Source: Chrysomallon squamiferum (taxonomy: Eukaryota > Animalia > Mollusca). Taken from it: a stretch of DNA of 64,000 nt. The translations under genes were made by a program, and so were the position numbers. How positions within the stretch are numbered: position 1 is the stretch's first letter; each line of letters opens with the position of its first letter. A model generated the notes under the pieces. The model saw only the letters and a program-made list of their open reading frames with translations. It was not told the origin of the DNA and ran no database searches. Location of the stretch: contig CM022667.1 in the NCBI GenBank assembly GCA_012295275.1, forward strand, positions 1,054,001-1,118,000, in the 5' to 3' direction. Below, piece by piece: positions 59,414 through 63,517 of the stretch.

Positions 59414-59763
59414 ATGACTTATGTTAAACAAACACGGCTGAACAACATCTTGGTTTTAACGTTCATCATCGCGTCATCATCCAATATTCGCTTGACCCAG
59501 CAAAACAACATCGTGGAGGTCACGGGAGCCGGAGCGTCTTTCCCCCTCGACGTCTACACGTCGTGGATTCCAGCATACGAAACTCACCGACGCCCGTTCA
59601 AAGACGTCAACATGGATTACAACAGCATCGGCAGCGGGCAAGGAAAGGCCAGGATTAAAGGCGAAGTGGAGCCCCGCGTGGATTACGCAGGATCAGATTC
59701 CGTGCTGTCCGACCAAGATTATCGAGACTTTCCAGATCTTCAGATGTTTCCAACAATGGCTGG
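59414..59763 (+). CDS. PstS-domain receptor guanylyl cyclase-like gene, first coding exon (signal peptide plus N-terminal part of the PstS phosphate-binding domain)
   Basis: Poly-T/AG acceptor at 59406, ATG at 59414, hydrophobic ILVLTFIIA, PstS motifs GAGASFP, YNSIGSGQG, DYAGSD and FPT. The GG|GTAAAT donor is phase-compatible with the acceptor ending at 60991. Confidence 0.88.
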
Positions 59764-60991
59764 GTAAATGTCTTTATGTGTCTACCTAAATGTCAGTTTT
59801 AGGGGTGGGGGTTAAACGAATGTTTGCTCACAACAACGTAATAATAAAATAATAATAATGAATAAGTTAATAATAATAAAAAAGAATTAATAATAATAAT
59901 AATAATAATAATAATAATAATAATAATGAACAAATAATGAACAAAACAAACAAACAAACAAATAAATAAATAAAAATTAAAAAAAAAAACTCCTCACAAT
60001 AATAAACCTCGAAGTACATATATATATATATGCAGTATATACTTTAGAATGTTTCTTCATATCGCTCTTGTTAGCTGGGTTTTAATATGCATGAGACAGG
60101 TTTAATCTATCTGTTTCATGTATGCAGGAAAGCCTTTAGAAATTATATCTGCTTGTGCATTTATCCATCTACACGCCTGACCTTTTGCCCGTTCATTGTA
60201 AACTTTTTTTTTTTTCTCCAATTAATAAGCTTTGTTGGTTAAATTAATAATTATTTTTCTTATTGCTGTCACTGACCGTGGTTCCACCCCCTAAGGTATC
60301 AAAGACATAGATAGATAAATAAATAGACAGATAGACATATACAGACATATAGAGATAGATAGATAGACAGATGGATAGATAGATAGATAGATAGACAGAT
60401 GGATAGATAGATAGATAGAGAGAAAGAGAAAGAGAGAGAGAGAGAGAGAGAGAGAGAGAGAGAGAGAGAGAGAGAGAGAGAGAGAGAGAGAGAGAGAGAG
60501 AGAGACAGACAGACAGACAGACAGAGAGATAGATGATAGGTGAATAGGTTTAATTGTAGAAAGCGAAAGAGAGACAAAGAAAGAAAGCGACAGCGGTAAG
60601 GCGTGTAAAGAATTAGTATTAAATTATTAATAATTTTGATCTTATTAATTATAACATAAAAATGCTTATTATGTTTTATGCGTAGGTCTAGTTCCACTTT
60701 TTCTTCGATCTCTTCTTTACCAGAGAGGTCAGTGATCGTAAAATAATGATTTGCTTCATTTCAGCCAGATCAATAATGTCAAATTATATAGGTTGAGATG
60801 AATAGGAAATTATTCCTGTACTTTTATTATCATACATGTACTTTCATGTCATCATTGTCATTATCACCATTATAAGTTTTCATCATCATCATCATCACTT
60901 TAAAAATAATAACAAAAAAAAAATAAAAAATAAAATAAAATAAAATAAAATAAATATTTGTTTTGATATGATTTGCTCGGTTATTTTTCAG

Positions 60992-63517
60992 CGCTGTAGT
61001 CTGCATCTTCAATCTGCCTGGAATTTCGCGACTCAACATGACGATGCAGCAGCTGGCCGGTATATACAGCGGTCGGATTAGGTGGTGGAACGACTCGTCG
61101 CTGATTAGAATCAACCCGGAAATAACCCTGCCGGAGAGACAGATCATCACGACGGCCAGACGGGACAAGTCCGGTACGACGGAGATCTTCACGCGAGCTC
61201 TCAGCTCCAGCGACCCCGAGTGGGAGCAGAAATACGGGACGTTCAGCCTCGGAGTGGACGAGAACGACAGACCGTACCACTGGAACCCCGAGGCGGTGCA
61301 CGTGTTCGGGCTGACCAACAGGGGCTTGTCCGGCATGATTCTCTCCACCCGCTACTCCGTCGGCTACCTCGTCATGTCCGAAGTGACGTCGATGAAGCTG
61401 AGCTACGCTTTCCTGCGCAACAGAGCCGGTTACTTCGTCGCCCCGACTCTCACGTCTGTGCAGAAGGCCATGATGGCCACCATGTTCCGGTTCGGCTCGA
61501 GAATGACGGCCTCGCTGTCAGATCCTGCCGGAAACGAGTCTTATCCGATGGCTGGATACACGTATTTCATAATCAGGAAATCCTCGATGGAAAACTGCGA
61601 AACCGCCAAAGAGCTCGTGAGATACATTGAATGGTTTTTCACTAATCCAATGGCGCAAGACTATTGTTCGGGGTCCGACATGGTTCCCCTTCCTTTCAGT
61701 CTGTACAACATGGTCCTGGAGAAAGTGCTGAAGAAAGTGACGTGTCGTGGTCACAACGTGTATGACTTGGTGCGGGAAGAGAAGCAGGCAGAGATGGAAA
61801 GCCTAAGGAGCTGGGTGACTCCCGTTTACATCGCGTCGGCTTTCGTCGGAGTCATACTGCTTGTAGCCGCCGTGGTCGTAACCAAGAAGAAGACGAAGAC
61901 GTACAGAGCTGTGTGGAAGAACGAATGGAAGATAGAAGCGTGGGAAATAAACTTTTATCACCTCAGCCCGAAGCAGAACAACCTCAAAACTGTGAGTCTG
62001 ATTCCTTTCTCCAGGAACAAAATACACCCAGTGGAAAACAAGCGAGATTCGGTGTGGTCATCAGCGACTCCGTCAATTTCATCGCGTCTTGGAGAGTGGC
62101 AAGGACACATGGTCTACCTGAAGGCTCTGGACATCAACAAGACTTTAACGTTTCAAACAAAAGAAAGCGATTCTGTGGATGAGGCAGACTATACGACATA
62201 AGAATCTCACAACATTTTATGGACTGGTTCATCTGGAAGGCGTTTACCATTCCATCATGGACTACAACAGCAAAGGGTCGTTGAGCAATTTTCTCCACCG
62301 GTCGAATCTGAACGCCAACACGGATCTGAAGTTCGCCATCTGCTACGAACTGGCCTGCGGGATGAACTTCTTACACAAATACAACATAATTCACGGCAGG
62401 CTGACGAGCTCGTCCTGTTACTTCGACACTAACTGGTCTCTGAAAATTGACGAGTGGCAGAGAAACAAACTGGAAGACAAACGTGACCAGTACTACACGT
62501 CTGAAGACGTCAGCAGCGTATGACGCGATGGGACGCGCCCGAATTCTGGACCGCACCAGAAATACTGCAACAGAGATCAAATCCAACGAAGAGTGGCGAC
62601 GTTTACAGCTTTGGCATGATCATGAAGGAGATATTTACCAGAGAGCTGCCGTTCTCGGAATATTCAACTTGCAGGACCCTGGAGAGGTTCTGAAAGACGT
62701 CATTGCCGTGTCACTACGTCCTGGGTTTGCCTTGACGACACCGTTCACGGCTCGAGCCATCATGAGCTTGACCTGGGAGAGCGATTCCAGTGCGAGGCCT
62801 TCTTTTTCAGAAATACGCGAGAAGATCCTGAAAACGTATTCCAGAGGCAAAGCGGTGGTAGACTCGATCATCCACTTACTGGAAGAATACGTCTCAATTC
62901 TGGAGGAAACCGTCGAGACGGCAGAAGCCAGGGAAAAGCTTGTGACGGATCGCGATGTCAATGATCTTAAACTGTTGCCGTCGTCGGACGTCATCCAACC
63001 TCAGAAACATTCGTCCGTTACAGTGGTGGTTTGCAACCTCTGTGATTTCATGTCCTTGCCATCTCGGCTTAACTCCACTCAAGTGGTGCGTATGCTCACG
63101 AAACTGTTTCAAGCGTTCGACGACGTGACGTCATCTAACAATCTCTTCGTCTTTGACGTGTCCTTCAACAGCTACAAAATCGTCGCCGGGTTGCCGAAAC
63201 TTAGCAACAACCACGCTCAAATTGCTGTCCAGACTGCTCTAGATCTTATGGCGTCTGCTCAGAAAATTAACATTGAGCCGAACACGTTCGAAACAGTTTG
63301 CTTAAAGATCGGCGTCAGTTCTGGATCTGTGTTTCACGGAACTTTAGCCTCGAATGCTGGCGACAAACGCTTTATGTGCGGCGATGCCGTCTACGTAGCC
63401 GCGGAATTGGCCGACCTCGCTCAGCCCCGAACAGTTTTGATATCTCAGATGACGGAGCAGCTGTTACAGTCGACGACGAAGTGGAACGTGATTCAAAGAC
63501 AGGATCCTTTTATGTGG
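60992..63517 (+). CDS. PstS-domain receptor guanylyl cyclase-like gene, large exon (rest of PstS, TM at 61824-61880, kinase-homology domain, coiled coil, degenerate class III cyclase); frameshifted as assembled
   Basis: TTTTTCAG acceptor. PstS: AVVCIFNLPG, LAGIYSGRIRWWND, RRDKSGTT, YPMAGYTY. TM: VYIASAFVGVILLVAAVVV. Pseudokinase: RHKNL, KGSL, GMNFLH, HGRLTSSSC, WTAPE, GDVYSFG, RPSF. Coiled coil and cyclase: LEEYVSILEETVE, LKIGVSSG, GDAV. Probable donor TGG|GTATGT at 63518, otherwise the stop is at 63544. At least 3 frame changes between about 62160 and 62680. Confidence 0.82.

Follow-up and report, generated by a model that had tools for sequence, protein, structure and literature searches.

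A 64,000-nucleotide stretch of the genome of the mollusc Chrysomallon squamiferum (contig CM022667.1, hereafter the window) contains a gene for a predicted membrane receptor that combines an ectodomain of the PstS type with the intracellular part of an animal receptor guanylyl cyclase (rGC). In the window, this gene consists of two coding exons on the + strand (59414-59763 and 60992-63517). It represents a real, undescribed variant of the rGC design: no description of a PstS-rGC architecture was found in the literature searched, which left subscription journals mostly outside its scope. From its residues and from modelled structure, we propose, with a probability of about 0.55, that the encoded protein is a single-pass phosphate sensor of protostomes in which a PstS pocket sits on an rGC body, and that the molluscan form would signal through partner proteins and not through cyclic GMP (cGMP).

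Predicted phosphate pocket and receptor body

PstS is the sole family that matches both exons. Positions 1-75 of the TIGR00975 profile fall on exon 1 (E = 1.8e-11, 43.7 bits) and positions 79-308 on exon 2 (E = 3.2e-47, 161.2 bits), the exons having been scanned separately against a profile whose curated PstS cut-off is 205 bits. Since the exons hold consecutive parts of this profile, the splice from 59763 to 60992, which has GT..AG ends and had been proposed in a preliminary description of this DNA, joins the two halves of a PstS domain. The same description had assigned the ectodomain to PstS, and this is borne out by the molluscan orthologues, as all three of those scanned score above the cut-off (P0001, 222 bits; P0006, 213 bits; P0013, 211 bits) and no non-PstS family was found on the ectodomain. 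The proteins from Owenia (203 bits) and Lineus (197 bits for an N-terminally short model) fall just under it. ANF_receptor gave no match in any window piece or relative scanned, where only PBP_like_2/PstS was detected.

According to published data (PMC6549937; this and the other papers cited are represented by excerpts), PstS from Escherichia coli contacts phosphate through Thr10, Phe11, Ser38, Asp56, Arg135, Ser139, Gly140 and Thr141. All eight positions are kept in the window copy (S42, F43, S74, D95, R173, S177, G178 and T179), with a serine at the position of Thr10, and D175 occupies that of Asp137. Across the 79 rows of the family (defined below), R135 is found in 79/79, S139 in 72/79, G140 in 76/78 and T141, as T or S, in 77/79, while position 137 is neither D nor E in seven. 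Among the 22 rows that include exon 1, S38 is invariant and D56 is D in 18 and E in four. The AlphaFold model of P0001, the orthologue from Gigantopelta (mean predicted local distance difference test score 85.7), superimposes on E. coli PstS (1ixh) with a TM-score of 0.89 of the target and a root mean square deviation of 2.6 Å, i.e. it has a type II binding-protein fold. Hence, to judge from residues and fold, the pocket of the window copy is a predicted phosphate binder, and retention of the contact residues supports the earlier idea of a phosphate receptor.

The ectodomain thus has the same fold and the same phosphate contacts as PstS of the Pst ATP-binding cassette (ABC) transporter (1ixh; TIGR00975). 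It differs from PstS in being fused to a eukaryotic body, split by an intron and equipped with three N-glycosylation sequons and two invariant cysteines. These cysteines, present in 38/38 aligned proteins, likely tie the PstS domain to the helix entering the membrane. Furthermore, PstS is a stand-alone prokaryotic protein that works with PstA, PstB and PstC, whereas no ABC partner is present here, the neighbour being CCDC113.

Receptor guanylyl cyclases are built from a single transmembrane helix, a kinase-homology domain, a coiled coil and a class III cyclase fold, and their kinase fold lacks the catalytic Asp (PMC1435932). Behind its ectodomain, the receptor described here has the same order. 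Hydropathy reveals one transmembrane peak, at residue 395, followed by KKKTK; PK_Tyr_Ser-Thr matches two out-of-frame pieces of the window and Guanylate_cyc a third. The catalytic Asp is also gone from this kinase fold, HRD being replaced by HGR in the window, and only 2/39 rows have D in that column. The intracellular part of the Owenia protein P0069 matches NPR1 with 380 bits (E = 1.6e-112), one further family member does so with 338 bits, and the best fold match of the P0001 model is the intracellular domain of GC-A (E = 2.3e-35). Therefore, sequence and model comparisons identify the intracellular module as being of the animal rGC type. Profile matches, hydropathy and the P0001 model agree with the architecture given in the preliminary description (PstS, one transmembrane helix with KKKTK, kinase-homology domain, coiled coil, cyclase fold), and all the profiles that it expected (PBP_like_2/PstS, PK_Tyr_Ser-Thr and Guanylate_cyc) were recovered. 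Among known systems, rGCs (NPR1/GC-A and GC-C; PDB 9bcs, 9bcv and 8fx4) share this order and are the best sequence and fold match for the intracellular part. The receptor departs from them by its PstS (PBP_like_2) ectodomain, in place of the type I binding-protein domain ANF_receptor, and, in the window copy, by the absence of any catalytic residue.

The window sequence carries three frameshifts within the kinase-homology domain: an extra base at 62151-62154, two extra bases at 62519-62523 and a missing base after 62677. Since each of them is absent in 4/4 sequencing runs (from three studies), they are assembly errors; exon 1 has no indel in any of the four runs. Once the indels were read through by script, the corrected frame encodes 958 amino acids with no stop. 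The earlier estimate of about 960 amino acids agrees with this length. The protein is incomplete in the window, beyond which its C-terminus continues. Single contigs of runs X1 (61379-63578) and X7 (61381-63576) run from the C-terminal half of PstS through the end of the cyclase; the PstS-rGC fusion is therefore not an assembly chimera. Upstream, all four runs diverge from the window sequence at 59775, inside the intron, which we read as an intron polymorphism, and a spliced transcript joining exon 1 to exon 2 is inferred from the sequence.

Of the single-base allele differences listed, 47 were scored (62 further rows lie outside this count) and 43 of them are silent, against 22% expected (p = 9e-24); in the cyclase fold, 7/7 are silent. 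This count leaves out four rows at 61106-61109, where two alleles over adjacent codons would alter one residue, and a few differences common to all runs may be errors of the window. With the indels absent from the runs and silent differences in excess, the gene is intact and under selection.

Several observations concern paralogues. At least two further members of the family are present in the same organism, as revealed by loose contig ends at 59731-59766 and 61154-61198, and Gigantopelta has three copies. In runs X1 and X6, contig depth is approximately doubled at 61006-61408, where loose ends reveal a second copy with a different intron. Two paralogues of one other assembly, P0002 and P0004, have 99% identity in the corresponding 80 residues, compared with 34-69% elsewhere. 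These observations point to gene conversion between paralogues across the stretch with the Arg-Asp-Ser-Gly-Thr phosphate motif.

Range and origin of the family

The closest named relative, with 66% identity in the first open reading frame of exon 2, comes from the vent snail Gigantopelta aegis. A search for longer proteins yielded 18 matches among 4678 candidates, 16 of which combine PBP_like_2, kinase and cyclase domains. Profile searches then brought in a chiton, bivalves and cephalopods (42 matches) and the nemertean Lineus and the annelid Paralvinella (15 matches). An exhaustive search gave 5366 matches at E 0.001, of which the best 150 were considered; 20 of these were identified by name and brought in Owenia, Tubulanus, Helobdella, Ostrea, Bulinus, Priapulus and the tardigrade Paramacrobiotus. 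If a family row is taken to have a kinase-homology domain and a single PstS domain that spans 215 profile positions or more, there are at least 79 rows (window included), from molluscs, annelids, nemerteans, a priapulid and a tardigrade. Since the fusion is found in both Spiralia and Ecdysozoa, its distribution dates it to the protostome ancestor or earlier. Neither deuterostomes (including vertebrates) nor arthropods, nematodes or cnidarians are among the named matches of these incomplete searches, and the word-index search, which missed 5/17 of its own query members, is no guide to absence from a phylum. The preliminary description had asked whether similar architectures already exist as automated annotations in other invertebrates. 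They do: RefSeq and GenBank contain them under misleading automatic names such as 'atrial natriuretic peptide receptor 1-like' and 'speract receptor'. Together with the spliceosomal intron and the animal neighbour CCDC113, the presence of this architecture in many animals supports a host origin, already favoured over contamination in the preliminary description.

That description had also explained the ectodomain by a swap with a bacterial domain, which needs revision. In a maximum-likelihood tree of 36 rows (hand-picked from 196 and grouped by architecture; the tree is unrooted and its bootstrap not quite settled), 11 animal domains lie on one side of a branch (96/98), 13 stand-alone PstS on one side of another (100/100), and 12 fused, protist-type domains are placed between them. 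The nearest sampled relatives of the animal ectodomain are thus protist receptor domains (Andalucia, Chromosphaera, Plasmodiophora and Fabomonas among the named ones) and not bacterial PstS. As the animal domains stand apart from stand-alone PstS with the protist type between, recent bacterial transfer was rejected as the simplest reading, and the fusion is at least as old as the protostome ancestor. It seems likely, from these relationships, that an inherited eukaryotic sensor domain of the PstS type replaced the ectodomain of an animal rGC.

In these protist membrane receptors, too, the outer part is formed by a PstS domain. Fabomonas has the order PstS-PstS-transmembrane helix-kinase-cyclase, Chromosphaera and Plasmodiophora join PstS to multi-transmembrane/class C G-protein-coupled receptor (GPCR) bodies, and Andalucia has PstS followed by a transmembrane helix. 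The Fabomonas protein differs from the animal ones by its two PstS domains and its canonical kinase motifs. Because its cytoplasmic part is just 24% identical to that of Owenia (150 bits, far below NPR1), its PstS-kinase-cyclase combination is likely a separate fusion. The receptors of Acanthamoeba and giant viruses consist of an extracellular domain, one transmembrane helix and a cyclase between two kinases (PMC4053784), whereas the full-length relatives studied here have one pseudokinase before the cyclase and no flanking kinase pair; the ectodomain is not named in the excerpts of that paper. In the ESM Atlas, the top feature match was an amoebozoan cluster with PBP_like_2 and kinase (score 0.93). 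A second Atlas search gave leads that were all below 0.9. Within the set P0063, P0070, P0129, P0132, P0140, P0018 and P0050, protist PstS domains are often in tandem and on multi-transmembrane/class C GPCR bodies; in Fabomonas they are on a kinase-cyclase body. Receptors of the PstS type seem, from such sequences, to be widespread in eukaryotes.

Loss of catalysis and proposed mode of signalling

The cyclase site is formed between subunits, one providing the two metal-binding Asp and the other an Asn and an Arg, and guanine is recognized by a Glu and a Cys (PMC2576301). The window copy has none of the seven catalytic and guanine-binding residues (two Asp, Asn, Arg; Glu, Cys, Arg). The metal Asp positions are N798 and N842, that of the ribose Asn is Y917, that of the transition-state Arg is E921, and the guanine Glu and Cys positions are D838 and F910. 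As all the catalytic residues are missing, this cyclase is dead to judge from its sequence and cannot make cGMP; as both residue sets are missing, it cannot complement the site of a partner either. An active cyclase (0/7 residues) and a half-enzyme working by complementation in a heterodimer (both halves of the active site missing) were accordingly rejected for the window copy. The preliminary description was thus correct about the class III fold but did not mention the loss of every catalytic residue.

By contrast with the window copy, all seven residues are present in relatives from the annelids Owenia (CAH1793096.1) and Paralvinella, the nemertean Lineus and Priapulus (XP_014672517.1). A whole cyclase fold is found in 52 family rows; the four core residues are complete in 12 of them, and no more than two remain in the other 40 (the remaining 27 of the 79 comprise seven with a partial fold and 20 with no cyclase match). 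All 19 rows that come from named molluscs and have a complete fold are degenerate. Mean identity among 10 molluscs vs that among five intact members is 45 vs 43% for PstS and 36 vs 36% for the kinase fold, but 20 vs 63% for the cyclase fold. Since molluscan identity falls below that of the intact members for the cyclase fold alone, this comparison indicates that molluscs have relaxed the enzyme and not the sensor or the pseudokinase. The molluscan output must then be non-enzymatic and would probably be an altered binding of partners. That molluscs have given up catalysis but kept the sensor and the pseudokinase points to a new signalling route. In a separate tree, there appear to be two old molluscan subfamilies, both with dead cyclases, one with vetigastropods, caenogastropods, unionids and venerids, and the other with a chiton, a limpet, a scallop, an ark clam and cephalopods.

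The mechanism that we propose would start with an ectodomain facing the outside of the cell, as its topology suggests. Phosphate would bind between the lobes and close them, as residues and fold predict from PstS. Closure might then be passed on through the cysteine-locked juxtamembrane helix and the transmembrane helix to a dimeric pseudokinase/coiled-coil/cyclase module, by analogy with rGC anatomy. In the ancestral form (Owenia, Paralvinella, Lineus and Priapulus), the predicted output is cGMP. In molluscs, it might instead be the association of the pseudokinase or pseudocyclase with a partner that changes, for instance with a phosphate transporter or a kinase acting further downstream; this is the weakest step. 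Were its affinity close to that of the bacterial protein, the site would already be fully occupied in body fluid, and dilute external water would be the medium that it could best sense. The fuller claim, to which we give even odds on the basis of sequence, is that protostomes have had a dedicated extracellular phosphate receptor since their common ancestor, which would act as a cGMP switch in annelids, nemerteans and priapulids and as a double pseudo-enzyme in molluscs, responding without cGMP to phosphate in the environment or the shell fluid.

It is not yet settled how animals sense phosphate outside their cells. The candidate sensors of mammals (PiT1/PiT2, CaSR and FGFR1) answer the same need, but they are either transporters or receptors whose main ligands differ (PMC7599912). 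None of them has a dedicated pocket of the PstS type. The family offers a direct test, as its ectodomain is purifiable and bears a pocket of known type, and as worm members come with their own cGMP read-out. If the proposal is true, there would be a dedicated phosphate receptor in animals. In molluscs (farmed species among them) and worms, it would be relevant to nutrient sensing, biomineralisation and larval behaviour; it would also supply a ready-made phosphate-to-cGMP biosensor. As no vertebrate, arthropod or nematode is among the named matches, the family alone does not answer the question of phosphate sensing in mammals.

Several points weigh against this proposal. As its kinase and its cyclase are both dead, the receptor has no evident output. 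Cyclase loss is not specific to molluscs, judging by the degenerate cyclases (2/4 core residues) of the nemertean Tubulanus and the tardigrade Paramacrobiotus, and species were assigned to only 4 of the 12 intact-cyclase members, so that the other eight could include molluscs. The modelled structure is that of a 66%-identical orthologue, P0001, in ligand-free form, and not of the window copy. No contig bridging the microsatellite-rich intron from exon 1 to exon 2 was found in the four runs. Finally, the pocket varies: D56 is replaced by E and D137 by G or S in the cephalopod-like rows P0023, P0024, P0057 and P0079, and D56 by E in the annelids Paralvinella and Helobdella (rows P0055 and P0154). 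Ligand or affinity may therefore differ within the family.

This variation (E for D56 in 4/22 rows; neither D nor E at 137 in 7/79) also favours the idea that the receptor is a chemosensor for another cue, such as a phosphorylated metabolite, polyphosphate, arsenate or a phosphopeptide. The several paralogues per genome (three in Gigantopelta, at least two more here) suggest ligand diversification, and animal rGC ectodomains of the other binding-protein fold have been repurposed for peptides. Arsenate is also a ligand of E. coli PstS, though one bound 50-100 times more weakly than phosphate (PMC6549937). However, the window copy holds the whole buried contact set for inorganic phosphate, including Asp56, and its orthologues exceed the curated PstS cut-off, so that we consider another ligand unlikely, if worth keeping in mind. 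Alternatively, the molluscan protein could concentrate phosphate for a transporter, or clear it, with a cytoplasmic part serving for dimerisation and trafficking. PstS is known to serve in uptake (PMC6549937), neither enzyme fold is active and the molluscan cyclase fold has drifted to 20% mean identity. Such a capture role is nevertheless rather improbable, as the pseudokinase is equally conserved in molluscs and active members (36 vs 36%) and the dead cyclase fold is maintained (7/7 silent), whereas a pure anchor would be expected to shed its 550 cytoplasmic residues.

The retained coiled coil and cyclase fold might also allow the dead copy to pair with an active rGC and silence it, as a brake controlled by phosphate; because both halves of its site are missing, such pairing would leave the mixed dimer without a complete active site (PMC2576301). 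We have strong doubts about such a brake, since there is no active molluscan member among the named matches (19/19 degenerate) and the coiled-coil region has diverged from that of active members. As for a pseudogene, a chimeric assembly or bacterial contamination, which three frameshifts and the loss of all catalytic residues could have evoked, this is already largely refuted. The pseudogene was rejected on the absence of the indels in 4/4 runs and on 43/47 silent differences, and a contig from PstS to the cyclase in two runs, the spliceosomal intron, the neighbouring CCDC113 and the same architecture in many animal genomes speak against the other two. The phosphate sensor signalling through partners thus remains the reading that we prefer.

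Gene structure and surroundings

The features of the gene are listed in Table 1.

Table 1. Features of the receptor gene, in window positions
Feature	Position	Strand	Remarks
Poly-T tract and AG directly 5' of the ATG	59385..59406	+	Likely splice acceptor behind a non-coding 5' exon, judged from the sequence
Coding exon 1: signal peptide (probable) and N-terminal PstS portion	59414..59763	+	ATG at 59414; profile scans
Contact residues on exon 1: S42/F43 (E. coli T10/F11), S74 (S38), D95 (D56)			
Spliceosomal intron within the PstS domain	59764..60991	+	GT..AG, phase 2; host microsatellites
Remaining PstS domain with phosphate motif R173-x-D175-x-S177-G178-T179	60992..61757	+	E. coli R135, D137, S139, G140, T141
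Invariant cysteines C319 and C368	within 60992..61757	+	Predicted disulfide close to the membrane
Single transmembrane helix, then basic KKKTK	61818..61898	+	Hydropathy; long helix in the P0001 AlphaFold model
Kinase-homology domain (pseudokinase)	62082..62875	+	HRD = HGR, DFG = DEW; contains the three indels
Coiled-coil/signalling-helix segment linking kinase and cyclase folds	62855..62950	+	Helix 732-763 of the P0001 model; alignment with NPR1-like relatives
Class III cyclase fold, predicted catalytically dead	62999..63472	+	Profile match, residue alignment
Splice donor GTATGT	63518..63523	+	Last coding exon past the window end

The signal peptide claimed in the preliminary description is plausible, if weakly marked: N-terminal hydropathy in the window copy has no peak above 1.7, although the four full-length relatives P0001, P0008, P0009 and P0028 do have such peaks. 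Extracellular exposure of the ectodomain is inferred from the topology. At the other end, the orthologue P0001 runs on for 22 residues beyond the aligned W, and no further C-terminal exon was found in 63520-64000. By comparison with P0001, approximately 20-30 C-terminal residues would thus be encoded by an exon beyond the window.

The position of the intron 59764-60991 is common to one paralogue, whose loose contig ends reveal an identical exon-1 donor. Since 53/78 family proteins have no exon-1 motif and the majority of these start near the junction of exons 1 and 2 (gene-caller fragments), an intron within the PstS domain seems to be family-wide. Transmembrane helix, kinase and cyclase are here encoded by a single exon of 2.5 kb, unlike in the rGC genes of vertebrates, which are divided into many exons. 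This exon (60992-63517) also includes half of PstS, a layout that could result from retroposition of the rGC part or from extensive loss of introns.

Upstream, an exon of CCDC113/CFAP263, a ciliary coiled-coil protein, lies on the minus strand at 55009-55320 (E = 3.9e-09 vs PDB 8j07). The CCDC113 gene is oriented away from the receptor gene, and the two may have a common upstream region at approximately 57400-58600.

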